Below are positions 7,336 through 63,255 of a DNA stretch of 64,000 bases, in pieces. The notes beneath the pieces are model-generated. The model was not told the origin of the DNA. It did no database searches and saw only the letters and a program-made list of their open reading frames with translations. Source of the stretch: Nemertoderma westbladi. Taxonomy: Eukaryota > Animalia > Xenacoelomorpha. Numbering within the stretch: position 1 is the stretch's first letter; every line of letters begins with the position of its first letter. The position numbers and the translations under genes were made by a program. The stretch covers positions 1 to 64,000 of the forward strand of contig JAUCBJ010003147.1 of assembly GCA_032718475.1 (NCBI GenBank). Direction: 5' to 3'.

Positions 7336-7541
7336 GTACATTGTCAGTGCATACATATATGTGTTACATTAAGCCGTCCTGGTAGAACATTGTCAGTATA
7401 CATACATATATGTGTTACATTAAGCCGTCCTGGTAGAACATTGTCAGTGCATACATATATGTGTTACATTAAGCCGTCCTGGTAGAACATTGTCAGTATA
7501 CATACATATATGTGTTACATTAAGCCGTCCTGGTAGAACAT
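7336..7541. repeat. 49/51-bp tandem repeat, short array (about 4 copies)
   Basis: Unit TTGTCAGTGCATACATATATGTGTTACATTAAGCCGTCCTGGTAGAACA; same family as 20109-20630. Confidence 0.95.
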
Positions 7542-20108: not shown

Positions 20109-20630
20109 ACATATATGTGTTACATTAAGACGTCCTGGTAGAACATTGTCAGTGCATACATATATGTGTTACATTAAGACGTCCTGGTAGAACATTGTCA
20201 GTGCATACATATATGTGTTACATTAAGACGTCCTGGTAGAACATTGTCAGTGCATACATATATGTTTTACATTAAGCCGTCCTGGTAGAACATTGTCAGT
20301 GCATACATATATGTGTTACATTAAGCCGTCCTGGTTGAACATTGTCAGTGCATACATATATGTTTTACATTAAGACGTCCTGGTAGAACATCGTCAGTGC
20401 ATACATATATGTGTTACATTAAGACGTCCTGGTAGAACATTGTCAGTATACATACATATATGTGTTACATTAAGACGTCCTGGTAGAACATTGTCAGTGC
20501 ATACATATATGTGTTACATTAAGCCGTCCTGGTAGAACATTGTCAGTGCATATATATATGTTTTATATTAAGACGTCCTGGTAGAACATTGTCAGTGCAT
20601 ACCATACATATATGTGTTACATTAAGACGT
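20109..20630. repeat. 49/51-bp tandem repeat, about 10 copies
   Basis: Unit CATATATGTGTTACATTAAGACGTCCTGGTAGAACATTGTCAGTGCATA. Confidence 0.95.
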
Positions 20631-20885
20631 CCACCCCACCCCACCCCACCCCACCCCACCCCACCCCACCCCACCCCACCCCACCCCACCCCACCCCACC
20701 CCACCCCACCCCACCCCACCCCACCCCACCCCACCCCACCCCACCCCACCCCACCCCACCCCACCCCACCCCACCCCACCCCACCCCACCCCACCCCACC
20801 CCCACCCCACCCCACCCCACCCCACCACCCACCCCACCCCACCCCACACCCCCACCCCACCCCCCCCCCCCACCGCCACCCCCAA
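20631..20885. repeat. (CCCCA)n / (TGGGG)n microsatellite
   Basis: Long perfect pentamer run that degenerates at its right end. Confidence 0.97.
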
Positions 20886-20984: not shown

Positions 20985-21602
20985 CTACACCACAGCAAGT
21001 AGAGCATGGCGGATAATGCTATAGAGTTTGGCATGGCCAAGGTCACTCAGGTGTATACCATCGGAGTGCAGCAAGGTTCCTCCCTGCACCCGATGGCATA
21101 ATGCACCTTGCATTTTAATTAGAACGCCGTTCTGGGCGTGGTTGAACCACGCCGCCATCCGCATATTTGTGGCGACACGACGTGAATCATAATCGGGGTC
21201 CACAGACACACCTTTAGGGCGCATTAACCTGGGGAACATTTGTGTCCATAACACACAGGAAGCACCATTGGAAGAATATTCCTGAATCATTGACTTTAAT
21301 TTAGAGACAACGTAATCTGTGTCTCTCACACACAGATCGTTGCTTCCAAATAGAAGTACAATGAAACAAGGTTTATTGTCCCAATTGGCCATCACCTCCT
21401 GCGCGTTATGGGTGTCAAATATTCTCCCTGACCGCAGCTGAAAGGTAACTTTGGCAACTGTTGGACAGATACCAAAGTTACGATTGTGGCCGCGGTTGTT
21501 GTGGTCAAGGTACCGAAAGAGGTGGTCTGGGTGTGAAGACCCAACGATTATAATTTCATGTACATGATTGACAGTACAAATAGCTTGGACCGGTAGTGGC
21601 AT
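20985..21602 (-). CDS. Intronless SGNH/GDSL hydrolase (transposon-associated type), about 205 aa from the first ATG
   Basis: Block I IIIVGSSH, a block II glycine (LRSG), block III LLFGSNDL and block V DGIHL occur in canonical order. ATG at 21602 (MPLPVQ); a TATA-like motif lies about 75 bp upstream. Confidence 0.88.
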   Translation of the reverse strand: MPLPVQAICTVNHVHEIIIVGSSHPDHLFRYLDHNNRGHNRNFGICPTVAKVTFQLRSGRIFDTHNAQEVMANWDNKPCFIVLLFGSNDLCVRDTDYVVSKLKSMIQEYSSNGASCVLWTQMFPRLMRPKGVSVDPDYDSRRVATNMRMAAWFNHAQNGVLIKMQGALCHRVQGGTLLHSDGIHLSDLGHAKLYSIIRHALLAVV

Positions 21603-21675
21603 AATATCGACTGAATAGAGCAAATAAGTGGAGAGAAATGGGTAAAGTGATGATTTAATATGATACAGCGTTCCG

Positions 21676-21684
21676 TTTATATAG
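21676..21684 (-). promoter_or_regulatory. Putative TATA box of the SGNH gene
   Basis: CTATATAAA on the minus strand, about 75 bp upstream of the ATG. Confidence 0.5.
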
Positions 21685-21968
21685 AAAATTGTAAAGCATA
21701 TTGATGGTGGAGACAGTTGTTAATTCAGCGTGTGTATGGTTACGGTGTACATTACGGTGATAATTAGTAATTGATATTGGTTTGTAAATGTGCTGCAATG
21801 CAGTCAGGCAGTTGTTTCTCTAAGGCATAACCTTCCAATCCAATAATACCATATATGGTAATAATTCCCTTGGTTGCATCATGAAGCCTATTCATTGGTC
21901 GTAACATTGAGTAATTCTAACTGCAGCATACAGTGATATTCCTCTGACAATTTTGTTGGCGGGTTGTG

Positions 21969-24368: not shown

Positions 24369-24617
24369 ATGCCAAAACGAAAGCAATCTTTTGTTTGCTC
24401 GTACTGCCAAGGTCGCTGTGGCAAGAAGCGACACAACAAGGCAACCTGCCCTATGCGCATCGAACATCTGCGGAAAGGGATAGATGCCGCCAACATGGAC
24501 GCCGGTAGAGAGTTGGAAATAGGTGGCGTTGGTGACCAACCCATCGGTATTCATGTAGAGATTCCGGGAAGCGCCGATGTCCATCAGACCGGCCGTTTAC
24601 ACGCGGTGGAAGCCAAT
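24369..24617 (+). CDS. Coding exon 1: basic N-terminus and zinc knuckle
   Basis: MPKRKQSFVCSYCQGRCGKKRHNKATC...; donor GTAAGT at 24618. Confidence 0.85.
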
Positions 24618-27600
24618 GTAAGTTTTATTTAGGACTAACTTATATTAAGTATTATTCTAAACAGAGGCATGCTTAATACACTGTTTGTACGGCCTGCATA
24701 CTGTATCTGGGAAACACACCATTATCTGCACACTATTTAACCCACTTATCTATACCAGGAGATCTGCCATCGTGAGTTACCCTCCTTGATAACCAATCTT
24801 GATTTGACTTTTAATCTTACCCACCATTGTAACTCTATCTATATTGTCTTTTTACCAGCCATTGTCTACCTCCCTGTTTACCTTCCACCTTATTTGGTAA
24901 AGCTCCATTATAAATGTATATGTGCTGTGGGTCGGAGCTTTAAGGAGAAGGACTTCGATCCAATGTAACATAATAAATTGTGTAATGTTGTAGTATTATG
25001 TTGTGCTAATATACTAATTACTATAAATTCTACGTACTCCTTATTGTTGCTGTGAAGTGCGGTCATTTCTTTAGTATAGTTTCGTTATAATATGTTATTG
25101 TTATTCTTATTTATAATTACAGAATAACTATAAGTACCGGTATACTTATGGAACTATAACACCCCCCCTCCCTCACTTAAACGGAATATAAATTTTCTAA
25201 AATTAAAAAATACCTACCTATCTCTTTTTGTTGTTTGAAGTCAGTATAAGTATATCTCTCCGTGTCATTATTTTAAACTGCTACTTTCTAGGTGGAGTTG
25301 GATCGCGAGACTCCGGAGGTAGCGGTCGGACGCGAGACTCCCACTTCTCCATCCTACGCGGACGCGTTGAGATCGCCTCCACGGCCAAGTATCTGTTCTC
25401 CGCTGCAACCAACCCCGGTAGGACGCGGGACTCTCGACGTCACGGTGGGACGCCAGACTCCCCCTACATCTCCATCATACGCCGACGCGTTGAGATCGCC
25501 TCCACGGCGACGTACTACCCGTCCGCCAACACCACCAACGCCGGTTAGTTTAACATATATAAATATGTGGACCTACTTTGTCATTTTATATTTTGTTTCG
25601 GTGGTTTTCTAATACAATTACTGCATAAAACGATTAGCTGAAGCAATATATACAGTATATACCAGTATATACCTCCCAACACTCTACCCAGAGTCTCTCT
25701 TGACTCTTCACCCCGACCCCTCCCCCATTAATTCATTGAATCGTACATATTTGTTACATTTTTCTTCTATTTTTTCTCTTCTATCTATTATTTTTAAATT
25801 ATTTAGGTCGCCAATTCAAAGAGTTGGTTCCGCCAGGTCGCGGACGATCTCAACCTGGATGTGGTCGACATACCAAACCACCCACTGGCGCAGTTATCTG
25901 CGGTTTCAACGGCTGCGGGCTGGGGGATATCAGCCACCTATCTGAAACAACACGTGGCCGACTTCATGTTGCTGAGAACGGCCAAGTATTCGCGGCAGTG
26001 GCTCTTCCGTACGGGAGGGCCGCAATCGTTCGCCGCCTACTTACTTTCATTGGCGTCGGATGATTGCCAGGTTAACGACATCAACCTGGAGGCCATAAGA
26101 GATATGGAGGAGATGGAGATCACGGTCCATCGGGCGCAGCACCGAAACGCGCCAAGTTGTTACTGCGCCCCCCCAAGGAGACGAGGTGGTGCCATCCATA
26201 TCGGTGTGGACGGCGACCGATACGTCGCGTTTGTTTCGAGGTCTATCTCGACCCAGTCCGGCCGCGTGACCGAGTCGGAACCGATGGTTAGTTAATACTC
26301 TCCCTATAATGTTTCACTGTGTTTTTCAATAATGTTTGTGTTTATGTCACTGTTACATTAATGTTTGTATAAAAAGTATGTAACAAATACCATGAAATGT
26401 CTACAAAATAATTATATTTCCCGAATAGACGATGTTACACGGCTATTAATTAATTGAGACGTCGTCATTATTTTTATAGCTTCATATTAATTCCAAATTA
26501 TTGGTACCGACAATTAAAAACTCCATTTCGTTAATAAATATACATTTAGAATTCCTTTAAATACATTTAATATACATGGAATATTAAAATGGAATATGGA
26601 ATATTATAATACACATTGAATGTACCTTTAATTTCTTATTAAGTAAATATCAATTATCTCAAACTCCATATTTATAATTAATTGTTTAGGTTCTCCAGGA
26701 AGCTATTAAACCTATGGAGGACGTACATAATATCTCAGTCGCAACGGAGTTATTTACTACCGTTGTAGAATCTGATCTGCCCCGTAGATCCTATACGGTG
26801 TCCGGCCGTTTAGCTTCCAAACCTCCGACTGTAAGTGAATCTATATTATATATGTAATATCATATATTCATATATTATTTATTTAATTTGTTAAGAAATA
26901 ATTTCTTAAATTGTCAGAGGTTAGCTAAAATGTCACCCTATTTATAATTTATATGCACTTCGACATTTTACAATAATTCCACACTATAATAATATATTTA
27001 TATAATATTGATTATCGTTATTTTAGAGTTTTTTTTTGAATTCCCACTTGAACCACGGCGTTTATTTTGAATTGATGAGGAAAGTAACTTTATAATTTGT
27101 ATTAATATATTAACCTACAGGAGCTGCATTTAGTTGATAATATTATACGATATAATTTAACCGATATAATTAATTATTTAATTGTTATTTCCACAGAGAA
27201 CGTCGTCACGTAAAGGGAAGAAGAAATTATCAGCTCTGCAAGACGCAACTGATATCAGAGGTGACGCTATGTCTGAATGTTCAGATGTAGGTAGTATCGG
27301 CTCTGTCGGTAGTATCGGTTCTATTCGTAGTGTCGGTACTGCCGGTAGTGTTGGTTCTGTTAGCAGTATGGCGTCTAACGAGTCAACCCGTAGGAGGAAC
27401 GCCGCTCAAAAGTCCGGCTGTCCGTCTTCCCGTCCAGAAATCGTAAGTTTACTCAATAAATTATGTAATTAATTAATTATACAGAAACCTAATTAAATGA
27501 TATTTTTTGTATAATGTATTTAATTAATGGTAACTAACAGAACTCTTGTAAATATTTAATAATTTTTGTACAAATTAAATGACTGGAATACAATTGCATT

Positions 27601-30600
27601 TCGGTGCTTTAAAACTGAAAATATAAAATATTTTGTTTTAACTAATTCATATTTTCCCATTTAAATAAAGTTTATTTTATATAATTATTAATATTCCATA
27701 CGAATGGTAACTTAATTATTTGTTTAAATTTTAAAGACTATTTTATTCCATAATTTTTAATTTATAGCGTTTATTTTAAAATATTTAATTTAACTAACAG
27801 TTAATTATATAATCAACATCAATTATTATTTTTATTTTAGTTCACTAAACCAACTAAACGAAAGGGAGGCCAAACGTGTTCCTATTGTCAAGGACGTTGC
27901 GGGAAGAGGTCGCATAAGAAACAAACCTGTATTATGAGACTCTTCCATGAGAGTAAGGATATATGGGTGGCAAATATGGATGCGGGCATTCTTCTGGAAG
28001 TAGTACAGGACGCTGAGATGGACGAAATGGCCGCAGAGCCAGAGAGTACTGCTGATATGGACGCGGAATTCTTACAGGATATCGAACACGCGGAATTCTT
28101 ACAGGATATCGAGATGTTCGATATCGAGGCCGCCGAGAGTGGCGCTGTCCAGACCGGCCGCGTATCTGATCCAGAACCGATGGTTAGTTAACTTAAATAT
28201 ATCCTAAGCTATATTTACTAAATAACCCATAATATTGTCTATATTTCGGCGCACACGTACTGCATCCTATATACACGTTTGTACCATGTACAAATGTAGT
28301 GCGTGGATGTACACATGTAGTACATGGATGTACACATGTAGTACATGGATGTACACATGTACACATGCAGAATACACATGTGGTACATGGATGTACACTA
28401 GAGTTGCAACAGAGACCTGTTTTTCTTAATCCCGGTAAACCAGAGCCCTACCCAGAGAATTATTTTGAAAAATACCGGAGACCAGAGCCAGAGATCAGAG
28501 ACTTGGCTTATTTTTGTTCTTCCATTTTGATTAGTCCCATAAAGCACAAACAGGTACATATGGATGGACTGAAACTATTTTTATATGGTTGAATTACAGT
28601 AACTCCAACCCATATGAACCCTTACCAATTGAAATAAAATAAGCGCACGTACAGTTTACTTAATTAATATTAATTTGGTTATTTGTTTATTAATTCGTTC
28701 TTATTTTGTCATTGTTAATAATATGTTACATAAATTTGTTTTGCGCCATAGGTACCGGTACTTTGTTAAGTAAAGGCACTTATTTTACAATTGTTCAAAT
28801 CATATACATTTCAATAGACTATAAACTTAGTAAATTACGAATACAGTGCACAGGTATGGTACTCTACTCGCCCCATATGCAAGCCTCGTTACGCTCGTTC
28901 TCTTCATTTGGTCTTCATATTATCTATCCTACAACAAGTTGAACGGAGATCAGCCCTTTCTTTCACTTTTAAACATTATGGGTGCTCAAATTAAGCACCT
29001 TTATCCTTAAATAAGAACGACCTTTAGGTGCTAATTTAATTTAAAATTAAACGCACCTTAAATTAATAAATGTAAATATAATTATTATCGGTACATTTAG
29101 TTTGAGTCAGATTTAGAGTTAGATTAAAAACAGTGTAAAAGTGAATGTATAATTTTGTTGAAGCTGAGTATTAAAAATAAAAATTAAAGAAATTATTAAT
29201 TGTAAAAAATTTGTGAAAAATAATCTTCATTTCACATTTTGTGTTGTACAGGATCTATTTTTAAATATCTATTTTTAATTTGTAAAATCACTGATCTCTG
29301 GGTAAAATGTCTGTTTTCAATACCCGGGAACCAGAGACCCATCCAGAGACTAAAAAATTACCCGGAGAATCCAGAGATCAGTGACAGGTCTCTGTTTCAA
29401 CTCAATGTACACATGTGGTACATGGATGTACACATGTGGTACATGGATGTACACATGTGGTACATGGATGTACACATGTGGTACATGGATGTACACATGT
29501 GGTACATGGATGTACACATGTGGTACATGGATGTACACATGTGGTACATGGATGTACACATGTGTTACATGGATGTACACATGCGGTACATGGATGTACA
29601 CATGTAGTACATGGATGTACACATGTACCGCACCCTATATACACGATTGTACCATGTACAAATGTAGTACGTGGATGTACACATGTAGTACATGGATGTA
29701 CACATGTAGTACATGGATGTACACATGTACACATGCAGAATACACATGTGGTACATGGATGTACACATGTGGTACATGGATGTACACATGTGGTACATGG
29801 ATGTACACATGTGGTACATGGATGTACACATGTGGTACATGGATGTACACATGTGGTACATGGATGTACACATGTGGTACATGGATGTACACATGTGGTA
29901 CATGGATGTACACATGTGGTACATGGATGTACACATGTGGTACATGGATGTACACCTGTGGTACATGGATGTATACATGTGGTACATGGATGTACACATG
30001 TGGTACATGGATGTACACATGTGGTACATGGATGTACACATGTGGTACATGGATGTACACATGTGGTACATGGATGTACACATGTGGTACATGGATGTAC
30101 ACATGTGGTACATGGATGTACACATGTGGTACATGGTTGTACACATGTGGTACATGGTTGTACACATGTGGTACATGGATGTACACATGTGGTACATGGA
30201 TGTACACATGTGGTACATGGATGTACACATGTGGTACATGATGTACACATGTGGTACATGGATGTACACATGTGGTACATAGATGTACACATGTGGTACA
30301 TGGATGTACGCATGTGGTACATGGATGTACACATGTGGTACATGGATGTACACATGTGGTACATGGATGTACACATGTGGTACATGGATGTACACATGTG
30401 GTACATGGATGTACACATGTGGTACATGGATGTACACATGTGGTACATGGATGTACACATGTGGTACATGGATGTACACATGTGGTACATGGATGTACAC
30501 ATGTGGTACATGGATGTACACATGTGGTACATGGATGTACACATGTGGTACATGGATGTACACATGTGGTACATGGATGTACACATATGGTACATGGATG

Positions 30601-33600
30601 TACACATGTGGTACATGGATGGTACATGGGTGTACACATGTAGTGCATGGATGTACACATGTAGTGCATGGATGTACACATGTAGTGCATGGATGTACAC
30701 ATGTAGTGCATGGATGTACACATGTAGTGCATGGATGTACACATGTAGTGCATGGATGTACACATGTAGTGCATGGATGTACACATGTAGTGCATGGATG
30801 TACACATGTAGTGCATGGATGTACACATGTAGTGCATGGATGTACACATGTAGTGCATGGATGTACACATGTAGTGCATGGATGTACACATGTAGTGCAT
30901 GGATGTACACATGTAGTGCATGGATGTACACATGTAGTGCATGGATTTACACATGTAGTTCATGGATTTACACATGTAGTTCATGGATTTACACATGTAG
31001 TTCATGGATGTACACATGTAGTTCATGGATGTACACATGTAGTTCATGGATGTACACATGTAGTGCATGGATGTACACATGTAGTGCATGGATGTACACA
31101 TGTAGTGCATGGATGTACACATGTAGTGCATGGATGTACACATGTAGTGCATGGATGTACACATGTAGTGCATGGATGTACACATGTAGTGCATGGATGT
31201 ACACATGTAGTGCATGGATGTACACATGTAGTGCATGGATGTACACATGTAGTGCATGGATGTACACATGTAGTGCATGGATGTACACATGTAGTACACT
31301 GGATGTACACATGTAGTACACTGGATGTACACATGTAGTACACTGGATGTACACATGTAGTACACTGGATGTACACATGTAGTACACTGGATGTACACAT
31401 GTAGTACACGTACACATGTAGTACAGTACACGTACACATGGAGTACAGTACACGTACACATGGAGTACAGTACACGTACACATGGAGTACAGTACACGTA
31501 CACATGGAGTACAGTACACGTACACATGGAGTACAGTACACGTACACATGGAGTACACTACACGTACACATGTAGTTCACTACACGTACACATGTAGTAC
31601 ACTGGATGTACACATGTAGTACACTGGATGTACACATGTAGTACACTGGATGTACACATGTAGTACACTGGATGTACACATGTAGTACACTGGAAGTACA
31701 CATGTAGTACACTGGATGTACACATGTAGTACACTGGATGTACACATGTAGTACACTGGATGTACACATGTAGTACACTGGATGTACACATGTAGTACAC
31801 TGGATGTACACATGTAGTACATGGGTGTACACATGTAGTACATGGGTGTACACATGTAGTACATGGGTGTACACATGTAGTACATGGATGCACACATGTA
31901 GTACATGGATGCACACATGTAGTACATGGATGCACACATGTAGTACATGGATTTACACATGTAGTACAGTAATACACGTACACATGGAGTACAGTAATAC
32001 ACGTACACATGGAGTACACTACACGTACACATGTAGTACACTACACGTACACATGTAGTACACTGGATGTACACATGTAGTACACTGGATGTACACATGT
32101 AGTACACTGGATGTACACATGTAGTACACTACACGTACACATGTAGTACACTACACGTACACATGTAGTACAGTACACGTACACATGTAGTACAGTACAC
32201 GTACACATGTAGTACAGTACACGTACACATGGAGTACAGTACACGTACACATGGAGTACAGTACACGTACACATGGAGTACAATAATACACGTACACATG
32301 GAGTACAGTAATACACGTACACATGGAGTACACTACACGTACACATGGAGTACACTACACGTACACATGTAGTACACTACACGTACACATGTAGTACACT
32401 GGATGTACACATGTAGTACACTGGATGTACACATGTAGTACACTGGATGTACACATGTACAGTACACGTACACATGGAGTACAGTACACGTACACATGGA
32501 GTACAGTACACGTACACATGGAGTACAGTACACGTACACATGGAGTACAGTACACGTACACATGGAGTACAGTACACGTACACATGGAGTACAGTACACG
32601 TACACATGGAGTACACTACACGTACACATGTAGTACACTACACGTACACATGTAGTACACTACACGTACACATGTAGTACACTACACGTACACATGTAGT
32701 ACAGTACACGTACACATGTAGTACAGTACACGTACACATGTAGTACAGTACACGTACACATGGAGTACAGTACACGTACACATGGAGTACAGTAATACAC
32801 GTACACATGGAGTACAGTAATACACGTACACATGGAGTACACTACACGTACACATGTAGTACACTGGATGTACACATGTAGTACATGGGTGTACACATGT
32901 AGTACATGGATGCACACATGTAGTACATGGATGCACACATGTAGTACATGGATGCACACATGTAGTACATGGATTTACACATGTAGTACATGGATTTACA
33001 CATGTAGTACATGGATTTACACATGTAGTACATGGATTTACACATGTAGTACATGGATTTACACATGTAGTACATGGATTTACACATGTAGTACATGGAT
33101 TTACACATGTAGTACATGGATTTACACATGTAGTATTTCCGGTAGCTATCATAGTATAATTAATTGTAATTAACACTTAATTTTTTTTCCTTTTAGGATA
33201 CGGATACAAACACTCCAATTCGTTTAGATTCATTAAGAACACGTATCCTTTTGGGACCCACCTGCATGCTCCCTAGTGTCTCACCATTAGTCGTCCCTTC
33301 ATTCTCCCCTAGAATGGAGACTCCTGCCTTTTCACCATTGGCTAGATGTACTCCCACGTTTTCCCCACTCGTGGATGTTTCTCCTGGTGGCTACTCTGAT
33401 CAGTCGCAGTCGACGCCGGGCATTCTATCACCGTTTTTGAGGATGTCTGCAGTAGAGACGCCCCCTCGCTCACAATCCCGTCGACCAAAGCCACTGAACA
33501 TTCGTCCACGGCGGGAGCGAGGGGGTCGTATAATCGGGGTGAGTTGATATAATTTTGTAGTAAAGCTTTTGGTTGAGTCGAATGAATTAAAAGTATTTTG

Positions 33601-34361
33601 TATAGTTGTTTGTTTTTCTATGGTTTTAGTGAATGTTGATTAAGATGCTTATTGATATATATAACGAAATTGTTTCTATTTCAATTTAATGCTTTCTAAG
33701 TCTGTTATTTATTTATTTATACTGAAATTATTGTATTTTTCTGTATATTCTATAAATAATAATCACCCAATAATTACAGTTAATGAAACACAGCTAATTC
33801 AATAAGCATATTTCTATAGTCAATGAAACACACAGATTGGTGATTGCAGTATAGCTGTTTTTGTTGTGGCATTATTCGTTATTTCAGAGGTACTTACAGT
33901 TTGATTTATGTTTATTTTAGGATCCAACTGGTTCAGGAACCTGTACCCCTTTCTCCACCCCAACTATGAGTCCTCGCACAGATTCTCCCGTGTTTCGGTT
34001 TGACGATGACTCAATTCGCCGGCTTAATTCTAAGTCCGGGAAGGATACTCCTCCCCGATTTCTATCACGGCGACTATCTCCCTATGTTGTTCTATCACGT
34101 AAGGATATTGTATCAAGTCCAACACCGGATGTTGGACTAAACGCAGTACCATCTCCACCCGACGTGTTACCCAGCACAGAAATTGTACCTGGAGTGTTAC
34201 CAACCGCGCCTCGTGCAACACGACACACACCCAGTGCGGCACCACAATCTAGTTCTAGAACACCACACACATCGACCTCAACACCCCGCCCGTCGGGTGC
34301 AACAACACAGCCTTCAAATGCAAATCCGCAGCCTTCAACATCGGGCGGGGTCCCGTCAATG
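24369..34361 (+). CDS. Spliced gene with 8 coding exons (about 831 aa, 3'-incomplete): two zinc knuckles, an inactive OTU-like domain and S/P/T-rich regions; probably the N-terminal part of a Helitron-like polyprotein
   Basis: Exons 24369-24617, 25292-25543, 25807-26286, 26690-26830, 27197-27442, 27841-28182, 33197-33538 and 33921-34361. All have polypyrimidine-AG acceptors and GT(A/T/G)AGT donors, lengths divisible by 3, no stops when joined, and higher GC than the introns. Confidence 0.85.
25292..25543 (+). CDS. Coding exon 2: duplicated SP-rich motif
   Basis: PTSPSYADALRSPPR occurs twice; TTTCTAG acceptor and GTTAGT donor. Confidence 0.8.
25807..26286 (+). CDS. Coding exon 3: degenerate OTU-like cysteine protease domain
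   Basis: LDVVDIPNHPLAQLSAVS...LKQHVADFM...FAAYLLSL...INLEAIRDMEEMEITVH...IHIGVDGDRYVAF follows the OTU hydrophobic pattern; the catalytic Cys and His positions are Ala and Arg. Confidence 0.7.
26690..26830 (+). CDS. Coding exon 4 (not in the ORF track)
   Basis: VLQEAIKPMEDVHNISVATELFTTVVESDLPRRSYTVSGRLASKPPT; TGTTTAG acceptor and GTAAGT donor. Confidence 0.8.
27197..27442 (+). CDS. Coding exon 5: basic patch and (GSV/GSI)n repeat
   Basis: RTSSRKGKKKL...; TTTCCACAG acceptor and GTAAGT donor. Confidence 0.8.
27841..28182 (+). CDS. Coding exon 6: second zinc knuckle and acidic tract
   Basis: FTKPTKRKGGQTCSYCQGRCGKRSHKKQTCIMR...ANMDAG is a paralog of exon 1; TTTTAG acceptor and GTTAGT donor. 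Confidence 0.85.
28290..33135. repeat. Intronic 21/22-bp minisatellite array, interrupted by a MITE
   Basis: Unit ATGTACACATGTGGTACATGG and zoned variants; it explains the many repetitive ORFs in the track. Confidence 0.97.
28399..29404. mobile_element. Non-autonomous hAT-like MITE (about 1.0 kb)
   Basis: TIRs TAGAGTTGCAACAGAGACCTGT / ACAGGTCTCTGTTTCAACTCA; 8-bp TSD ATGTACAC at 28391-28398 and 29405-29412; subterminal CCAGAG repeats at both ends. Confidence 0.85.
33197..33538 (+). CDS. Coding exon 7: SP/TP-rich
   Basis: DTDTNTPIRLDSLRTRILLGPTCMLPSVSPL...; TCCTTTTAG acceptor and GTGAGT donor. Confidence 0.8.
33921..34361 (+). CDS. Coding exon 8: S/T/P-rich
   Basis: DPTGSGTCTPFSTPTMSPRTDSP...GGVPSM; TTATTTTAG acceptor and GTGAGT donor. 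Confidence 0.8.
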
Positions 34362-34393: not shown

Positions 34394-35461
34394 GTGAATC
34401 AATTGTCACGTAATTATGTAAGTGAATCAATTCCCATGTAATTATGTAAGTGAATCAATTGCCACGTTATTATGTAAGTGAATCAATTGTCGCGCAATTA
34501 TGTAAGTGATTCAATTGTCGCGCAATTATGTAAGTGAATCAATTGTCACGTAATTATGTGAGATAATGAATTGTCATGTAATTATGTTAGTGAATAAATT
34601 GTCATGTAATTATGTAAATGAATAAATTGTCGCGCAATTATGTAAGTGAATCAATTGTCACGTAATTATGTAAATGAATCAATTGTCATGTAATTATGTA
34701 AGTGAATCAATTGTCACGTAATTATGTGAGATAATGAATTGTCATGTAATTATGTTAGTGAATAAATTGTCATGTAATTATGTAAATGAATCAATTGTCG
34801 CGCAATTATGTAAGTGAATCAATTGTCGCGCAATTATGTAAGTGCATTTGTCACGTTATTATGTAAGTGAAACAGTGAATCAATTGTCACGTAATTATGT
34901 AAGTGAATCAATTGTTACGTTATGTAAGTGAATCAATTGTCACGCAATTATGTAAGTGAATCAATTGTCACGTAATTATGTAAGTGAATCAATTGTCACG
35001 TTATAATGTAAGTGAATCAATTGTCACGTAATTATGTGAGATAATGAATTGTCATGTAATTATGTTAGTGAATAAATTGTCATGTAATTATGTAAATGAA
35101 TCAATTGTCGCGCAATTATGTAAGTGAATCAATTGTCGCGCAATTATGTAAGTGCATTTGTCACGTTATTATGTAAGTGAAACAGTGAATCAATTGTCAC
35201 GTAATTATGTAAGTGAATCAATTGTTACGTTATGTAAGTGAATCAATTGTCACGCAATTATGTAAGTGAATCAATTGTCACGTAATTATGTAAGTGAATC
35301 AATTGTCACGTAATTATGTAAGTGAATCAATTGTCACGTTATTATGTAAGTGAATCAATTGTCACGTTATAATGTAAGTGAATCAATTGTCGCGCAATTA
35401 TGTAAGTGAATCAATTGTCACGTAATTATGTGAGATAATGAATTGTCATGTAATTATGTAA
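34394..35461. repeat. 28-bp minisatellite
   Basis: Unit GTGAATCAATTGTCACGTAATTATGTAA. Confidence 0.96.
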
Positions 35462-37048
35462 GACAATCAAGTCTCACACATAGATCTCGTTTTACGTAGA
35501 ATTTGTAATACCCAAAGACCTTTTGGAGGAAAGTTATTTATTGGCTGTGGAGATCACAAACAGCTAGAGCCAGTTGAGGGTAGAGTTGTCTGGCTTAGTA
35601 CACACTTTTTAACAACCTTTAAAGTAGCTGTTTGTAGACATTTTGTCCGTAGTGCCAACGATCAAGAATTACAGCTTGTTATAAATATCTTGCGGTCAAC
35701 AAATCCATCTCCAAATGAAATTGATCAAATGATTAATATCCTAAAGAGGCGTTGCAATTTTGTTGATACCTGGGAAGATGTCCCAGATGATGTGTTAAAG
35801 GTTGTAGGCACTAGGGCTGGTGAGCAGGAGGTATTAAAGAAATATCTGGACCGGCACCGAAATGAGTACGGAACTGTAATTATTGATAGTATTGATCAGG
35901 TCAATAACGGTAATCCAGCGGAGGAGCAATCTTGGAAAGAAACGCAAGCTACAAACATTATTACCTCAATAACAAAGTCTTGTCGTGAACCAAGACAATT
36001 GGTGTTATTTCTTAATCAGATTCTCCGATTTACATTTAATCGTTATTCTGTGCAACCACAATTTTCAAATGGTCAATTACTCTTTGTTACAAAGGTACCC
36101 ACTGATAGAACAGATAGATTACATGGGGCTATTGTCCCTAAAGGTTGCCGCCGTGTCAATTCAGAGGTTGCACAAACCTGGCCTATCGTTAAACTAGAGC
36201 AGCGTAAAATGCCCCCTCCTACTACTGTTGGTTATGGTAGGAATACTATCATGGGGAGGCGAATACAATATCCTGTACGTTATTTTGGAGCGAGCACTAT
36301 TCATGGTGTTCAAGGTCAAGGTACACCTTCTATAGCAACCCAGATAACTATGGACAAACAGAGTACATATAAAATTTGGCTTAAAACCCAAGTAACAACT
36401 TTAATCTCAAGAGTATATTTCCTTGACCAATTTACGTTTGTTGGGCCCACGGATGAAACTTTTAATTGTGTTAGGGTTTTAGCTAATAGAAAATCTCCAA
36501 ATCAAGAGTATGTAGATCAGTTACTGCATAGTCTCAATATTCTTGATGGGCCACCACAGGAGCCAATAGCACTTGCTGACCATCCTTTCTTGCCATACTA
36601 TATCGACATTCCTTCATCCCATACGGGATTTGTATATATGTTGATTAGCGTCAGATTTCCTAATGTTGTTACTTATATAGGGCAAACTGAGGAACTGAAA
36701 GCTCGGTTAAATGCTCACCAGAATAAGACAGGGTCTGAATTCACAAGAAATCCAGCCTACCATCCCTGGGCGCTTTATGCATTTGTAAGTGGCTTTCCTG
36801 GTGAAGCAAAGAGTGCACTCAATACTGATTACCGTAAGGAATTTGAGACTCAATGGCACCATGATACTGATACCAACAGAAGTGGTGGTAATACAACTCA
36901 TAGTAGAGAATATATCTATAACATTGGGATTGAGATTGTACGTCAGTATAACACTGATCATTTATATCATGATGAAAATGAAGATCCTCAGAAATTTGAA
37001 TTGATAATGGTTCAATGTCAACGTATAAATGTTATTGCCAATGAATAA
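35462..37048 (+). CDS. PIF1-family (SF1B) helicase C-terminal part fused to an SLX1-type GIY-YIG endonuclease; 5'-truncated, possibly a pseudogene
   Basis: The open frame extends 228 nt upstream of the track ORF. It contains IDLVLRRICNTQRPFGGKLFIGCGDHKQLEPV (motif III), HFVRS (IV), ASTIHGVQGQG (V) and QVTTLISRV (VI), then GFVYMLIS..TYIGQT..ARLNAHQ..HPWALYAFVSGF..EFETQW (GIY-YIG, about 36626-36860). Walker A and B are absent. Confidence 0.9.
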   Translation, partial: DNQVSHIDLVLRRICNTQRPFGGKLFIGCGDHKQLEPVEGRVVWLSTHFLTTFKVAVCRHFVRSANDQELQLVINILRSTNPSPNEIDQMINILKRRCNFVDTWEDVPDDVLKVVGTRAGEQEVLKKYLDRHRNEYGTVIIDSIDQVNNGNPAEEQSWKETQATNIITSITKSCREPRQLVLFLNQILRFTFNRYSVQPQFSNGQLLFVTKVPTDRTDRLHGAIVPKGCRRVNSEVAQTWPIVKLEQRKMPPPTTVGYGRNTIMGRRIQYPVRYFGASTIHGVQGQGTPSIATQITMDKQSTYKIWLKTQVTTLISRVYFLDQFTFVGPTDETFNCVRVLANRKSPNQEYVDQLLHSLNILDGPPQEPIALADHPFLPYYIDIPSSHTGFVYMLISVRFPNVVTYIGQTEELKARLNAHQNKTGSEFTRNPAYHPWALYAFVSGFPGEAKSALNTDYRKEFETQWHHDTDTNRSGGNTTHSREYIYNIGIEIVRQYNTDHLYHDENEDPQKFELIMVQCQRINVIANE

Positions 37049-40000
37049 GTTATTGACTTTCTGAATATTATTAGGCAATACTTTTGACCATTTTTATCAA
37101 TTTATATCTCGTAAATTATAGCCATTACTTATATAGGGATACGCATTTAATATTGTGAGTAATCTTAGGAAAACATTTGCGTATCACAACATATAATATA
37201 GATATTCTATTGTAAAAAAAATAAAGAATATCATTATATTCATATATATTATTATAGCAATGTCAATATATATTATCATAGCTTAAGATAACACTTAAAG
37301 CTACTTATAATAGCTTAAGATAACACTTAAAGCTACTTATAATAATCTGGGAATATATCACTCTTAATAATTGATACTAAGAAAGGCTATCAATAACATA
37401 GATATTCTATTATGAAAAACTGCTTTAAAGTATATGAAAAGCTTAACAAAGAATATCATATATTATGAATATATATTATTATAGCAATGTGAATATATAT
37501 TATCATAGCTTAAGTGTTATATGGCTCAAATTCAATTTTTATCAAATTTTACTTTTGATACTTTTTATACATACTTTTTATACAATTCCATATTTTAAGT
37601 AATGATTTATCAGCTGATGAAGTTTTGAACATTTTTAACCAATGGCAAGTGATGATTTATGCTAAAGTGAAGCACTATATCCTAGTGAACATTACTTTAC
37701 TGCAGAAAAGCCCTTGGGCAATATTTTACTGCAGAAAGGCCCTATATGTCTCTAAATTTATTCTTCTGAATAATTTCAATGGCTCCTGAATAATTTCAAT
37801 TTTTACTTAATTATTGAATAATATGTGCTTAATTTACTTCTATTTTTGAACCTTATAACACTTAAAGCTACTTACATTATAAACTGGGTAGATATCACTC
37901 TTAAATGATACTAAGAAAGGCTATCAATACATTAGTATCTAACTTTAACTGTACCCAGTTAATACTCAGTCATTAGTTGAGACTGGCATTAGTGTCTAAG
38001 CCAATTTAAAATATTCATAATAATAAGAATATAGCTTAGACTAAAATATGAGTATGCCACAATGTTTATATACTTATAATCTATAATCTAATAATAATAA
38101 ATAATATAACTAATAGAAAATACTATAAAATAATTTATATATATTATATATCATATAGTTTTTAAAATTAAATTATGATTTTTAAACTTTAATTTAATGT
38201 AATTTTTTTATATAGTAAAAAATTTGAATATATTTTATACCTATTTATTTTATATAAAATTTGAATATATTTTATACTTCTATTTTTATTTTTCTATATT
38301 TTTATTTAATATATTTATAATTTTATACTTATAATTTTATATTTATTTATATATTTATTTATATATTTGATATATATTGTTTTCTATAACGAATGAAAAA
38401 TTTAAACAAATTGTTAAATGAATATATTCTTTTGATAAATTGCTGTTTAATTTGTTATGACAATTTGGTGCAATATTGTCTTACAGCCATTCATTTCATC
38501 CATCTGTGCTCTAAGTAACCCTATAAACGGCTCTGCTGAACAGTATAGATTACAGTAGAAAATCATATCATCTTCACTCACTTTCCCTAAAGTTAGCTGA
38601 GTCATATCATTGGCTGTTAAAATGATTGTTTGCATCACATTGAATGGTGACATACTAAAACAGCATTATATATATTCTAATAATAATTCAATTTGTTAAA
38701 ATTATCTTGATTCACTATATAAACAATCTATATATCAAATATAATAAATAAATAATACTATTCATTATTTATATTTTATTTTAGTAATAATTAAATTATG
38801 AAATAATAATTATAATAATTAATTAAAAAACAAATAATTATATAACTAAATAAATTAGATATTGTGGCATACTTTATCCTGGTTTCTATTGCCAGAGTTT
38901 TATTGCCAGTTTACTTCACAGTAAACTGAAATATTATACTGTAGCACAGTATAATATTATATTGGTGAGGATAGGTATGGCTAATGGGGAGATGGGAGGC
39001 CATACTCATAACAATATGTTATGATATAATAAAGTGCTATAGTATAATATAATTTGGTGAGGATAGGTATGGCTAAAGGGGAGATGGGAGGCCATACACT
39101 CATAACAAATTGTTATGATTATATTCGATTTCATAAATTGACGAAATCATATATAAAACACCCTAAAATGCTTAGATGTAACTTATAGAGAACCCAATAA
39201 TTGAGAGTTTCTCCATTGCGGTACTGAAATGTATCCATATCATTGATCTACATATTAGGGTGTTTTAATTTTAAACTTAAACTTTTATTCAAAATTGTTA
39301 GTATATCTTTAACTATTAATTAATTTACAGTACTATAATTATATAATGGTTTTCTATAGAATAAGGTAGTATTTTATAAACTTTTATATTTTTTTCTTGA
39401 CTCATTTTCAGCTTGTCGATCATCATCAATTATTAGCAATAACTGCCATATTATCATTCTTCATCATCATCATCAATCATATGTGCTTCATCATAACTAA
39501 TCTGAAGTAATCTTATATCGCAAATAATAAGTTCTAATTAAAATATTTTGGAGTAGTATATAGTTTGTATATTATTTTGCAAAGCCTGAAATAGCCATTC
39601 TTATAAATTGACATTTCAAAACTATTTTGTGATATTGACCATTCTCAAAAATGGTCTTCAATTATACAAATATAATATTGACAAAATTATATATGAAACA
39701 CCCTAAAATGCTTAGATATAACTTAATAAATGGAATAGTTTGAGTCAAAAACTCAACAGGAACCCAACAATAATTGAGAGTTCCAGGACTGAAAAGTCCT
39801 TATCTAATTTCCATTGTGGTACTGAAATGTATCCATATCATTGATCTAACATATTGGGATGTTTTAATTTTTTATCAAAAATTTTAAGTATATCTTGAAC
39901 TATTAATTAATTTATAATATTATATTTACTTCATGGGTTTTTATAGCATAAGGTAGTATTTTATAAACTTATATATTTTTTTTGAACTTATTATTATTAG

Positions 40001-45589: not shown

Positions 45590-47531
45590 ATAATATGTGT
45601 TTGAGATAGTCCACTTTGAAGGAATTTAAATTTTTATTTAAAAATATTCAATTTCGTTATTTTTTCTCGTAGTTTTCTATTAGGAATCCAAATCTGGTTC
45701 TGGCATGTTAATGGTAAATTAGGTTTTAAAATAATGCACCTTGAAGGAAGAGTAGTTGTAAGTTATGAAATTTAAATCTATAATGGTAAAAAATAATAAT
45801 TTATAAATAAAATATATAATAAATCTCGAAAATATAATAATTAGCTTAGTTGTTCAGGTGCTGGTCGAAGTTTCAAACTAGATAAATGTTTTCTATTGGG
45901 AATCCAAATCTGTTAATGGCGTATCAATAGCTAAATTAGTTTTTGAGATAATCCACTTTGAAGGAAGAGTATTCAAAATTTATGAGATTTAAATCTATAG
46001 TAGTAAAAGTAATAAAATAAATAATAATTTAAGTAATAAATGTATAATCTATATTAGTTAGCTTAATTGTTTACATGCTGCTTGAAGTCCCAATTTAGAT
46101 GTCCAGCATGCTTAGTTATTCATATTCTGCTTGAAGTCCCAAACTAGATAACCAGTTAGCTTAGTTATCCATGTGCTGCTTGAAGTCCCAAACAAGATAA
46201 CCATTTAGATTAGTTGTTAACATGCTGCTCTAAGTCTCAGACTAGATACCCATAGCTTAGTATATCATGTTGAAATATTGCACCTTGAAGGAAGAGTAGT
46301 TGAAAGTTATGAAATTTAAATCTATAATGGTAAAAAATAATAATTTATAAATAAAATATATAATAAATCTCGAAAATATAATAATTAGCTTAGTTGTTCA
46401 GGTGCTGCTCGAAGTTTCAAACAAGATAAATGTAGTTTTCTATTGGGAAACCAAATCTGTTAATGGTGTATCAATAGCCAAATTAGTTTTTGAGATAATC
46501 CACTTTGGAGGAAGAGTAATCAAAATTTATGAGATTTAAATTTATAGTAGTAAAAGTAATAAAATAAATAATAATTTAAGTAATAAATCTATAATCTATA
46601 TTAGTTAGCTTAATTGTTTACATGCTGCTTGAAGTCCCAATTTAGATGTCCAGCTTGCTTAGTTATTCATATTCTGCTTGAAGTCCCAAACTAGATAACC
46701 AGTTAGCTTAGTTATCCATGTGCTGCTTGAAGTCCCAAACAAGATAACCCTTTAGATTAGTTGTTAACATGCTGCTCTTATGTCTCAGACTAGATACCCA
46801 TAGCTTAGTTTATCATGTTGAAATAATGTACCTTGAAGGAAGAGTAGTTGAAAGTTATGAAATTTAAATCTATAATAGTAAAAAATAATAATTTATAAAT
46901 AAAATATATAATAATCCTCGAAAATATAATAATTAGCTTAGTTGTTCAGGTGCTGCTCGAAGTTTCAAACTAGATAAATGTAGTTTTCTATTGGGAATCC
47001 AAATCTGTTAATGTCGTATTAGTAGCTAAATTAGTTTTTGACATAATCGTCTTTGAAGGAAGAGTAATCAAAATTTATGAGATTTAAATCTATAGTAGTA
47101 AAAGTAATAAAATAAATAATAATTTAAGTAATAAATCTATAATCTATATTAGTTAGCTTAATTGTTTACATGCTGCTTCAAGTCCCAATTTAGATGTCCA
47201 GCTTGCTTAGTGATTCATATTCTGCGTGAAGTGCCAAACTAGATAACCAGTTAGCTTAGTATTAGTAGCTAAATTAGTTTTTGACATAATCGTCTTTGAA
47301 GGAAGAGTAATCAAAATTTATGAGATTTAAATCTATAGTAGTAAAAGTAATAAAATAAATAATAATTTAAGTAATAAATCTATAATCTATATTAGTTAGC
47401 TTAATTGTTTACATGCTGCTTGAAGTCCCAATTTAGATGTCCAGCTTGCTTAGTGATTCATATTCTGCGTGAAGTGCCAAACTAGATAACCAGTTAGCTT
47501 AGTTATCCATGTGCTGCTTGAAGTCCCAAAC
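45590..47531. repeat. About 545-bp tandem repeat (about 3.5 copies) with internal subrepeats
   Basis: ACCTTGAAGGAAGAGTAGTTG recurs near 45738, 46282 and 46830; GCTGCTTGAAGTCCCAAA subrepeats; the unit resumes at 49896. Confidence 0.9.
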
Positions 47532-49685
47532 CTAGTAACAATAACCTTATAGAACACGTCATCCCTCACTAACGTAGTAACAATAAACTTATAAAACACG
47601 TAATCCCTCACTAACTTAGTAAGAATAAACTTATAGAACACGTCATCCCTCACTAACGTAGTAACAATAAACTTATAGAACACGTCATCCCTCACTAACG
47701 TAGTAACAATAACCTTATAGAACACGTCATCCCTCACTAACGTAGTAACAATAACCTTATAGAACACGTCATCCCTCACTAACATAGTAACAATAAACTT
47801 CTAGAACATGTCATCCCTCACTAACGTAGTAACAATAAACTTATAGAACACGTCATCCCTCACTAACATAGTAACAATAACCTTATAGAACACGTCATCT
47901 CTCACTAACGTAGTAATAATAAACTTATAGAACACATCATCCCTCACTAACGTAGTAACAATAAAATTCTAGAACACGTCATCCCTCACTAATGTAGTAA
48001 CAATAAACTTATAGAACACGTCATCCCTCACTAACATAGTAACAATAAACTTATAGAACATGTCATCCCTCACTAATGTAGTAACAATAAACTTCTAGAA
48101 CACGTCATCCCTCACTAACGTAGTAACAATAAACTTATAGAACACGTCATCCCTTACTAACACAGTAACAATAAACTTATAGAACATGTCATCCCTCACT
48201 AACGTAGTATAGAACATGTCATCCCTCACTAACGTAGTAACAATAGAACACGTCATCCCTCACTAACGTAGTAACAATAAACTTATAGAACACGTCATCC
48301 CTCACTAATGTAGTAACAATAAACTTATAGAACACGTCATCCCTCACTAACGTAGTAACAATAAACTTATAGAACACGTCATCACTCACTAACGTAGTAA
48401 CAATAACCTTATAGAACACGTCATCCCTCACTAACGTAGTAACAATAACCATATAGAACAAGTCATCCCTCACTAACGTAGTAACAATAAACTTCTAGAA
48501 CATCCCTCACTTACATAGTAACAATAAACTTATAGAACACGTCATCCCTCACTAACGTAGTAACAATAACCTTATAGAACACGTCATCCCTCACTAACGT
48601 AGTAACAATAACCTTAAAGAACACGTCATCCGTCATTAACGTAGTAACAATAAACTTATAGAACACGTCATCCCTCACTAACGTAGTATCAATAAACTTA
48701 TAGAACACGTCATCCCTCACTAACGTAGTAACAATAACCTTATAGAACACGTCATCCCTCACTAACGTAGTAACAATAAACTTCTAGGACACGTCATCCC
48801 TCACTAACGTAGTAACAATAAACTTATAGAACACGTCACCCTAACTAACGTAGTAACAATAAACTTATAGAACATGTCATCCCTCACTAACATAGTAACA
48901 ATAACCTTATAGAACACGTCATCCCTCACTAACATAGTAACAATAACCTTATAGAACACGTCATCCCTCACTAACGTAGTAACAATAACCTTATAGAACA
49001 CGTCATCGCTCACTAACGTAGTAACAATAAACTTATAGAACACGTCATCCCTAACTAACGTAGTAACAATAAACTTATAGAAGACGTCATCCCTCACTAA
49101 CGTAGTAACAATAACCTTATAGAACACGTCATTGCTCACTAACGTAGTAACAATAAATTTCTAGAACACGTCATCCATCACTAATGTAGTAACAATAACC
49201 TTATAGAACACGTCATCCCTCACTAACGTAGTAACAATAAACTTAGAGAACACGTCATCCCTCACTAACGTAGTAACAATAAACTTGTAGAACACGTCAT
49301 CCTTCACTAACGTAGTAACAATAAACTTCTAGAACACGGCATCCCTTACTAACGTAGTAACAATACAACACGTCATCCCTCACTAACGTAGTAACAATAA
49401 ATTTATAGAACACATCATCCCTCACTAACTTAGTAACAATAAACTTATAGAACGCGTCATCCCTCACATAGAACACGTCATCCCTAGCTAACGTAGTAAC
49501 AATAAACTTATAGAACACGTCATCCCTCACTAACGTAGTAACAATAACCTTATAGAACACGTCATCCCTCACTAACGTAGTAACAATAAACTTATATAAC
49601 ATGTAATCCCTCACTAACTTAGTAACAATAAACTTATGGAACATGTAATCCCTCACTAACTTAGTAACACTAAACTTATAGAATA
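47532..49685. repeat. 42-bp satellite array
   Basis: Unit TAGTAACAATAAACTTATAGAACACGTCATCCCTCACTAACG. Confidence 0.97.
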
Positions 49686-50496: not shown

Positions 50497-50725
50497 ATCG
50501 TTGTCTTCTTAGTCGTCGTCTTCTTAGTTGTTGTCTTCTTCGTCATCGTCTTCTTTGTCGTCATCTTCTTCGTCATCGTCGTCTTCTTCATCGTCGTCTT
50601 CTTCTTCGTCGTCATTGTCTTCTTCTTCGGTGTCGTTCGTTATCCTTTTCTTTGTTGTCTTCGTTGTCTTCGTTTTTATTGTCTTCGTCGTCTTCTTCTT
50701 TTTTGTCTCCTTCGTCTTCTTTTTT
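50497..50725. repeat. (TCG/TCT/TCA)n degenerate trinucleotide tract
   Basis: Low-complexity CGTCTTCTT runs. Confidence 0.9.
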
Positions 50726-53700
50726 TTATCAACACTATTAATTATCAACATCATCAACAATACAGTTTAATAATGAATACTCATCAACAATTACGTTTAT
50801 TCAGGTTTAATCATCAAAGAATCAGGATTAATTGTCAAACTATCAGGTTTAAATATCAACAATCAACTTTAATTATCAATATCAACAATCAAATTTAATT
50901 ATCAAAAGTTCATCAACAAACAAGGATAAATTATCAAAAAACATCAATCAAGTTTATTCAGTTTTAATCTTCATAGGTTTAATCAACAATAATCAACTTT
51001 AATAATTAAATTTAATTATCAAAAAACATCAACACAGTTTTATGATCTCAACATTCAAAACATCAACAATGCAGTTTAATAATAATCAGAATCAACTTTC
51101 ATCAACATTCAGGTTTATTCAGATTTAATCTTCAAAAATTATGATTAATCGTCAATCAGGTTTAATCATCAACAATCAACTTTAATTATCAACATCAATA
51201 ATCAAATTTCATTATCAAAAAACATCAACACAGTTTTATGATCTCAACACTCATCAATACATCTTCTTCATCGTCTTCTTTTTCTATTAACCGTTTCAAT
51301 TATCAACATCAAGTTTATTATGGCTTAATCTTCAAAGAATCAGGATTAATCATCAAAAAATCAGGTTTAATTATCAATAATCAACTTTAATTTTCAACAT
51401 CAACAATCAAATTTAATTATCAAAAAACATCAACACAGTTTTATGATCTCAACACTCATCAAATCAGTTTTGTTCATCAACAAACAAGGATTAATTATCA
51501 AAAAACATCAACAATACCGTTTAATAATCTTATCAACAATCAGAATCAACTCTCATCAACAATCAGGTTTATTCAGATTTAATCTTCAAAGAATCAGGAT
51601 TAATCATCAAGGAATCAGGATTAATCATCAACAATCAACTTGAATTATCAACATCAATAATCAAATTTAATTATCAAAAAACATTAACATAGTTTTATGA
51701 TCTCAACACTCATCAACACATCTTCTTCATTGTCTTCTTTTTCTATCAACAGTTTCAATTATCAACATCAAGTTTATTAAGGTTTAATCTTCAAAGAATC
51801 AGGATTAATCATCAAAAAATCAAGTTTAATCATCAATAATCAACTTTAATTTTCAACATCAACAATCAAATTTAATTATCAGAAAACATCAACACAGTTT
51901 TATGATTTCAACACTATCGAATCAGTTTTGTTTATCAACAAACAAGGATTAATTATCAAAAAATATCAACAATACCGTTTAAAACATTCAGAATCAACTC
52001 TCATCAACAATCAGTTTTATTCAGATTTAATCTTCAAAGAATCAGGATTAATCATCAAAGAATCAGGATTAATCATCAACAATCAACTTGAATTATCAAC
52101 AATCAACTTGAATTATCAACATCAATAATCAAATTTAATTATCAAAAAACATTAACAGTTTTATGATCTCAACACTCATCAACACATCTTCTTCATCATC
52201 TACTTTTTCTATCAACAGTTTCAATTATCAACATCAAGTTTATTAAGGTTTAATCTTCAAAGAATCAGGATTAATCATCAAAAAATCAAGTTTAATCATC
52301 AATAATCAACTTTAATTTTCAACATCAACAATCAAATTTAATTATCAGAAAACATCAACACAGTTTTATGATTTTAACACTCATCAAATCAATTTGGTTT
52401 TTCAACAAACAAGGATTAATTATCAAAAAATATCAACAATACCATTTAATAATCTTATCAACAATCAGAATCAACTCTTATCAACAATCAGGTTTATTCA
52501 GATTTAATCTTCAAAGAATCAGGATTAATCATCAAAGAATCAGCATTAATCATCAATAATCAACTTTAATTATCGACATCAACAATCAAATTTAATTATC
52601 AAAAAACATCAATACAGTTTTATGATCTCAACACTCATCAAATCAGTTTTGTTATCAACAAACAAGGATTAATTATCAAAAAACATCCGTTTAATAATCA
52701 TATCAACAATCAGAATCAACTCTCATCAATAATCAGGTTTATTCAGTTTTAATCTTCAAAGAATCAGGATTAATCATCAAAGAATCAGGATTAATCATCA
52801 ATAATCAAATTTAATTATCAACATCAACAATCAATTCAATTATCAAAAAACATAAACACAGCTTTACAAACTCAATACCAATCAACAATCAGTTTTGTTC
52901 ATCAGCAAACATGGATTAATTATCAAAAAACATCAACAATACAGTTTAATATTCAATACTAATCCGGTTTATTCATCAGAAGTTGAATCATCAAAGAATC
53001 ATCAGGCTATCAACAATCAACCTTAATTGTCAATATCAACTATAGAGTTTAATAATCAATACTCCTTAACAATGAGGTTTATTCAGCTTTAATCATCAAA
53101 GAATCACGATTAATCGTCATACAATCAGGTTTAATCATCAACAATAACTTTAATTATCAACATCAACAATCAAATTTAATTATCAAAAAACATCACAAAC
53201 AATATAGTTTAATAATCAATATTCATCAACAATCAGGTTTATTTATCAGAAGTTGAATCGTCAAAGAATCAGTCTTAATCGTAAAGAATAAGTTTTATTC
53301 ATCAATAATCAACTCTAATTATCAACATCAATTATAGAGTTTAATAATCAATACTCATCAACATTCAGGTTTATTCAGCTTTAGTCATCAAAGAATCAGG
53401 ATTAATCAATCGTCAAACAATCAGGTTTAATCATCAAAGAATCAGGATTAATCATCAAACACAGGTTTAATCAATATTCATCAACAACCAGGTTTATTCA
53501 TCAGAAGTTGAATCATCAAAGAATCAGGCTTAATCGTAAAGTATCAACATCAATTATAGAGTTTAATAATCAATACTCAACAACATTCAGGTTTATTCAG
53601 CTTTAATCATCAAAGAATCAGGATTAATTGTCAAACAATCAGGTTTAATCATCAAAGAATCAGGATTAATCACCAAGCAATCAGGTTTAATCATCAACAA

Positions 53701-53835
53701 TCAACTTTAATTATCAATATCAACAATAAAATTTAATTATCAAAAACATTACAGTTTTATAATCTCAACACTCATCAACAATCAGTTTCATTCATCAACA
53801 ATCAAGGATTAATTATCAGAAAACATCAACAATAT
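50726..53835. repeat. Degenerate ATCA-rich satellite (about 21-bp subunit, about 460-bp higher-order unit)
   Basis: AATCAGGATTAATCATCAAAG-type subunits; the marker ACATCTTCTTCAT occurs near 51259, 51718 and 52184. Confidence 0.88.
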
Positions 53836-62265: not shown

Positions 62266-63255
62266 CTCTTCCCTACCCGGTGCTGGTCTGCAACAGGTGC
62301 TCCTCCCCTACCCGGTGCTGGTCTGCAACAGGGAGCTGCTCCCTCATTGGCACTGGAAGTGTATGACGCCTGGGTGGTTTTATCTTAACAGTTGTTTGCC
62401 ACTTATAAACCTGCGAATGTATGGATTCATTCAAATAAGATTGGGCAGCAGTTATGTTGTTTAAGAGGGGGATTTTGTTAAACTAAAATTTAGCCGGACT
62501 CAACAACTTATCTTCATCAACATAATTATGTTGTGACGTTTTTATTCGAGTCCATGTCCTCACCATATTTAGTTGATCGTTTCAACGACTACACCTTACC
62601 CAATATTCAATTTTATCTTCATCACTCTTAACCCGTTTTACCTCTCCCATTACAATCGTACTACCTCCAACCTGTGCATTGTGCAATCACTTAACTACAT
62701 TTCAAACCCATGTTCCTAAAAAACTTATTTCAAACCCATGTTCCTGAAAAACTTATTCATTCTACAACTCTTATCTTTATATGCACCTTTTACTTCTAAT
62801 TAAACTAAAGAAGAGTCTATTAAAGACGAGTATGGTATGGTATATCTTCAATTATTTATTAACTATTTATTATAACTGAGTCATATCAGAGCAATTATCA
62901 TAATGTATTGCCCAGTGATGGTCCAGGTATAAATTCTGAAATATGTAAATAATTAATATTTACTATATTTAAAAATTATTACACAAAAAATGGCATGTAT
63001 ACTTGGCACTATACTTGTAATTGTCCACTTGTCAGACTTCTTGGCATCTTGTTAATACAAAATATTCATATATTACATTATATTAGTTACTAATGAAGTA
63101 ACTTCTGCCGGCGCAGGTCTCCAACAACAGGGCGGACAGAACTCAGTGGCACCTCTGAATATATTCTTCCATTGGATGTATGCCTGAAACTGGGCGTTTC
63201 ATCCAGCCTTGATGTATTGACTGCATTAACTAGTAATATAATTGTTATTTTCATT

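Follow-up and report, generated by a model that had tools for sequence, protein, structure and literature searches.

A probable Helitron-superfamily transposase gene with an SLX1-like GIY-YIG nuclease tail in Nemertoderma westbladi

The window analyzed here is the whole stretch of 64,000 nucleotides at positions 1 to 64,000 of contig JAUCBJ010003147.1 from Nemertoderma westbladi (assembly GCA_032718475.1). The coding region of interest is a stop-to-stop reading frame of 528 codons on the plus strand (35462-37048), preceded by the exons of a spliced gene and, further upstream, by a hydrolase-like ORF in the opposite orientation. Four public runs of the same organism, belonging to three studies and denoted X1 to X4, supplied contigs that were compared with the window over 35440-38000. 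The principal features are as follows.

20985-21719, minus strand: SGNH/GDSL-hydrolase ORF without introns, arranged head-to-head with the spliced gene (matched by Lipase_GDSL in Pfam with an E-value of 5.3e-6, above the cut-off)
24369-24617, plus strand: first coding exon, with ATG at 24369 and a zinc-knuckle-like Cys/His motif (X4 joints 22148>24359 and 24617>25292; frame test)
25292-25543, 25807-26286, 26690-26830, 27197-27442 and 27841-28182, plus strand: five coding exons (X4 joints 26285>26689, 26830>27197 and 27442>27841; frame)
28286-33135, no strand: 21-bp tandem arrays in a predicted intron of the upstream gene (TRF)
33197-33538 and 33921-34361, plus strand: two Ser/Pro-rich exons predicted from GT/AG sites and frame
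34394-35477, no strand: 28-bp tandem array of 38.6 copies, located in the intron that follows the final upstream exon and abutting the deletion junction at about 35480 (TRF)
35480-36496, plus strand: helicase of the Pif1 family (SF1B), C-terminal half only, running from just past Walker B (residue 7) to motif VI (Pfam PIF1, Foldseek, conserved columns in 128 relatives)
36626-36868, plus strand: GIY-YIG nuclease domain, residues 389-469, in frame (Pfam, profile of relatives, six residues intact)
37046-37225, plus strand: stop codon and short 3' region with a single AATAAA at 37220 (the X4 contig ends at 37234)

The original prediction of a PIF1 helicase followed in frame by a complete GIY-YIG domain is borne out, and the fusion of the two in frame 35462-37048 is confirmed as real. 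Pfam places GIY-YIG at residues 389-469 with an E-value of 1.5e-8, above the gathering cut-off, whereas PIF1 is found at residues 6-39 with an E-value of 5e-4, below it. When an AlphaFold model of the frame (pLDDT 83.5, with an alignment of 25 sequences as input) was searched with Foldseek, the top matches were Pif1 helicases (best E 2.8e-14), and the Helitron transposase 7LCC ranked 35th (E 2.6e-9). All six key residues of the nuclease (Y392, Y405, G407, R415, H419 and E462) are kept, and each is the majority residue (75-91%) among 128 aligned relatives. The first six codons of the frame, however, are part of the 28-bp tandem array rather than of the helicase.

Against solved structures, the single frame sequence reached SLX1 weakly (E 0.075-0.4); a profile of eight relatives reached SLX1 chains with E-values of 6e-11 to 4e-9, and bacterial UPF0213 proteins ranked behind them (1.6e-3). 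By these sequence comparisons, the SLX1 catalytic domain is the nearest solved relative of the fused nuclease, with which it shares the GIY-YIG catalytic residues. Cellular SLX1 also has a C-terminal RING finger and depends on SLX4. The lineage studied here differs in having the catalytic domain alone, fused to a helicase: Pfam matched no RING finger in the frame, where 59 residues with a single cysteine remain after the GIY-YIG domain. The designation 'SLX1-type' is therefore appropriate for the catalytic domain only.

Full-length relatives have the organization Rep(HUH,Y2)-Pif1-GIY-YIG in a single protein, with Rep upstream of the helicase. A Helitron-type Rep is present in all long relatives, and its fold is nearest to that of the Helitron transposase Helraiser, far nearer than to any viral Rep. 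Pfam PIF1 was found in all 19 long relatives scanned at E<=0.05 and in 14 of 19 others scanned at the stricter E<=0.005, and GIY-YIG in 15 and 17 of the same two sets, respectively; Exo_endo_phos was found in none of the 38. An OTU protease was detected in five of 19 relatives scanned. Considering the overall state of the nuclease, GIY-YIG is intact in 92 of 126 relatives and decayed, with three or fewer of the six key residues, in 23. Relatives are multi-copy and often broken, and variants and diverged paralogues of the frame are present in contigs from this organism. The lineage was found in an alveolate and an amphipod, probably also in diatoms. Its members are named 'hypothetical', Pif1, SLX1-like, 'Slx4p interacting protein' or 'ATP-dependent DNA helicase' in databases. 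Since the family is large (843 representatives at 50% identity, with large 90% clusters among the relatives) and goes under such names, it matters for repeat annotation. Two relatives carry an extra protease beyond GIY-YIG, namely, OTU in P0030 and Ulp1/Peptidase_C48 in P0063, suggesting that the C-terminus keeps gaining domains. A further family member (L005:1-2512) belongs to a Poribacteria MAG, in which it lies on a contig of 2.5 kb that is probably host DNA binned with the symbiont.

The frame very probably forms the 3' end of a transposase gene of the Helitron superfamily (Rep-Pif1-GIY-YIG), and the copy to which it belongs is devoid of Rep and helicase motifs I-II; the Rep identity is taken from the sequences of relatives rather than from that of the window organism. 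Animal Helentrons normally carry an AP (APE) endonuclease at the C-terminal position. The original prediction of a rolling-circle transposon with GIY-YIG in that position is upheld by the Rep-Pif1-GIY-YIG relatives, by their Helitron-like Rep fold and by the absence of Exo_endo_phos matches among the 38 long relatives. The window element is very probably an internally deleted, or mis-assembled, copy of a Helitron variant that occurs widely, has been little described and ends in an SLX1-like nuclease.

Upstream of the frame, tblastn with 155 fetched proteins gave no match to Rep or helicase in the window outside the ORF and its junction, suggesting that Rep and Walker A/B are absent from the window. 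Judged from its sequence, the window copy appears to be without Rep and helicase motifs I-II, so it is likely unable to move on its own and, being broken, is a poor representative of its family. Upstream of 35480, same-organism contigs of X1 and X2 no longer match the window. A 1671-nt contig of X1 agrees with the window over 35480-36244, followed by about 900 nt more that are unlike it, whereas two contigs of X2 have a loose end before 35480, with a 30-letter consensus (agreement 0.67) that, by eye, gives ten in-frame codons similar to the post-Walker B segment of relatives. The contigs extending past 35480 suggest that other copies hold more of the helicase upstream. Further loose ends at 35565, 35616, 36249, 36776 and 36813 correspond, by eye, to a diverged in-frame paralogue that includes the nuclease.

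A less likely alternative is that the window copy is not biologically deleted, and that an assembly collapse or mis-join between tandem arrays has shortened a locus that in truth holds a full-length element. The junction lies exactly at the end of the 1.08-kb tandem array, at 35480 the contigs from two studies go on with other sequence, and none of the contigs listed bridges the junction seen in the window. However, copies become merged and rare variants are lost in short-read contigs, so that a lone deleted copy would look identical, and Helitron families commonly include internally deleted copies according to the available text of PMC11417382. A mis-assembly would in any case alter the status of the window copy only, not the identity of the gene.

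The exons upstream of the junction, eight in number, extend from 24369 to 34361, have GT-AG borders and are each divisible by three; joined, they form a stop-free frame of 831 codons that runs up to a GT donor. The five joints given in the feature list are GT-AG joints among those listed for X4, whereas three of the introns, including 25543>25807, are predicted from GT/AG sites and frame. Exon 27841-28182 bears a second zinc-knuckle-like motif. The 831-codon product showed no similarity to 256 fetched proteins; zinc knuckles occur near the N-terminus in four of 47 long relatives examined, with sequence similarity to the upstream frame being undetectable. Because the 831-codon frame is free of stops and is followed by the helicase frame as the next long plus-strand ORF, we infer that the spliced exons are the 5' part of the helicase-nuclease gene, i.e., that the two form one gene of which the middle has been lost. 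No contig linking the upstream exons with the helicase frame was found among the same-organism contigs. Accordingly, the predicted absence of introns is correct within 35462-37048, but not for the probable parent gene, which is spliced upstream.

Run X4 appears to be RNA, although automatic typing guesses DNA. It also contains a contig covering 35794-37234, 98.8% identical to the window with 17 differences, which ends just beyond the AATAAA; together with the spliced upstream forms, this contig suggests that copies are probably transcribed. Several variant contigs of the SGNH ORF are present in the three DNA-like runs. This ORF is possibly, as a guess, an accessory gene of the element.

Sixteen of the 23 best-supported substitutions in the ORF, from a listing with 54 further rows, are synonymous, where 22% would be expected (p 1e-6), and the frame is, by these substitutions, under purifying selection. 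Such selection, along with the probable transcription of copies and the naming of database entries as, for example, 'Slx4p interacting protein' or 'ATP-dependent DNA helicase', would also suit a domesticated or cellular DNA-repair gene, that is, a Pif1-SLX1 fusion kept by the host. We regard this as very unlikely, given the Helitron-type Rep in all long relatives, their multi-copy and often broken state, the diverged paralogues in this organism and the missing RING finger of SLX1; moreover, active transposons are likewise transcribed and under selection. Least probable of all is a virus or plasmid-like replicon, such as an integrated ssDNA or giant virus: the layout of HUH Rep and helicase is also viral and plasmid-borne, one relative lies on the bacterial MAG contig and the SGNH ORF adjoins the gene, but alignment-based scans found no relative in IMG/VR, the window shows no ORF for a capsid or polymerase, spliceosomal introns interrupt the upstream gene, the Rep fold resembles that of Helraiser much more closely than any viral Rep, and the MAG contig is probably host DNA.

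With the Helitron-superfamily assignment preferred, the relationship of the lineage to known groups can be considered. Helentrons (HLE2 subgroup b) share with it a large RepHel with a second nuclease at the C-terminus and, in some members, an OTU protease; however, their nuclease is an AP endonuclease, whereas that of the lineage is GIY-YIG. Helitron1 (HLE1), represented by Helraiser (PDB 7LCC), has no C-terminal nuclease and shows 12% identity in the structural alignment. Bit scores of family profiles against Helraiser versus cellular Pif1 were 75.7 and 75.7 in one comparison and 29.8 and 57-62 in another, and the relative P0005 had no match to Helraiser at E<=1. The lineage thus appears far from Helitron1, in score comparisons with Helraiser as the sole HLE reference. 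The domain DUF6570, proposed as an HLE2 marker in the available text of PMC11417382, was unmatched in 38 of 38 long relatives (19 at E<=0.05 and 19 at E<=0.005), although a strongly diverged form of it could have escaped these scans.

The precedent that we found is the moss HLE2 family HelenSM92 from Sphagnum magellanicum, which, by its description in the available part of PMC11417382, likewise has GIY-YIG beside RepHel but as a capture in one family; the same text reports a few unclassified HLE clusters in addition to this family. On the GIY-YIG fusions suggested for some algal Helitron-like elements, PMC9977147 speaks neither for nor against in the parts available, where GIY-YIG is named only in a figure legend spanning several kinds of transposable elements; PMC3627910 and PMC6431247 mention it in connection with other elements, and PMC8788227 describes two Helitron helicase clades with no mention of GIY. 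No description of a RepHel-GIY-YIG lineage was found in the literature searched, with most subscription journals and Repbase Reports lying outside that coverage. The suggestion that novelty might lie merely in the host range does not hold, because the lineage covers an alveolate, an amphipod and probably diatoms. The lineage may be a subgroup of HLE2. Tentatively, and with somewhat less than even confidence, it could instead represent a third deep Helitron branch outside HLE1 and HLE2, which gained an SLX1-like nuclease once, early on, spread among diatoms, alveolates and animals, was missed by Helitron detectors and was mislabelled as Pif1 or SLX1. If so, the parallel with the Helentron AP endonuclease would mean that rolling-circle transposition had acquired a second nuclease step on two occasions.

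In Helraiser, nicking and joining of single strands is the work of Rep, and unwinding that of the helicase. Elements of the present lineage are presumed to transpose. An intact copy would use its Y2 HUH Rep to nick the end of the element and keep that end as a phosphotyrosine link, and its Pif1 domain would displace one strand for rolling-circle copying and strand transfer. The fused GIY-YIG domain may act as an SLX1-like structure-specific nuclease cutting the flap or branched junction left at the donor or target. Its kinship to SLX1 and its place behind the helicase make such cutting the most likely role, although confidence in it is evenly balanced. Target nicking, as proposed for the Helentron AP endonuclease, would be a less probable role, and that of a dispensable passenger is less probable still. 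Decay in 23 of 126 members suggests that the nuclease is helpful but not essential. A lineage in which another nuclease takes this C-terminal position, intact in 92 and decayed in 23 of the 126 members, offers a natural comparison for the resolution of branched intermediates by Helitrons and for the role of the Helentron AP endonuclease, and the GIY-YIG tail is a small domain open to assay.

Ends of HLE1 elements comprise 5'-TC and a 3' hairpin with CTRR, with insertion between A and T, whereas HLE2 (Helitron2/Helentron) ends are asymmetric terminal inverted repeats with hairpins and an insertion site of TT. Element termini, insertion sites and empty sites were looked for around the window element and none were found. 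Two weak CTRR-T candidates with poor hairpins are located at 38680 and 39807, and inverted 11-mers between the 5' and 3' zones number five (three sites), versus a mean of 1.3 and a maximum of 10 in shuffles. The motif GGTGAGG..GGTATGGCT, followed by an A/T-rich hairpin, is present in four copies (38964, 39056, 41163 and 42753), which are possibly a repeated element end. If colinear, those contigs of X1 and X3 that begin at 37842 would extend to about 39116.

The window contains several other repeats. A short segment at 37714-37759 is common to many contigs, whose flanks differ on both sides in all four runs, and is likely a separate small repeat family. A 66-bp satellite of some 290 copies fills about 19 kb at positions 1-19078, where it is broken up by C-rich segments and by an array of 51-bp units near 7338; a 49-bp array similar to the latter, together with a CCACC run, is found at 20109-20882. 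Tandem arrays are also present at 47529-49683 (42 bp), 50750-53750 (a degenerate mosaic of 20-26 bp) and 57651-62276 (about 480 bp), and the minus strand of 50498-50725 carries a microsatellite resembling a Lys/Asp/Glu-coding sequence.
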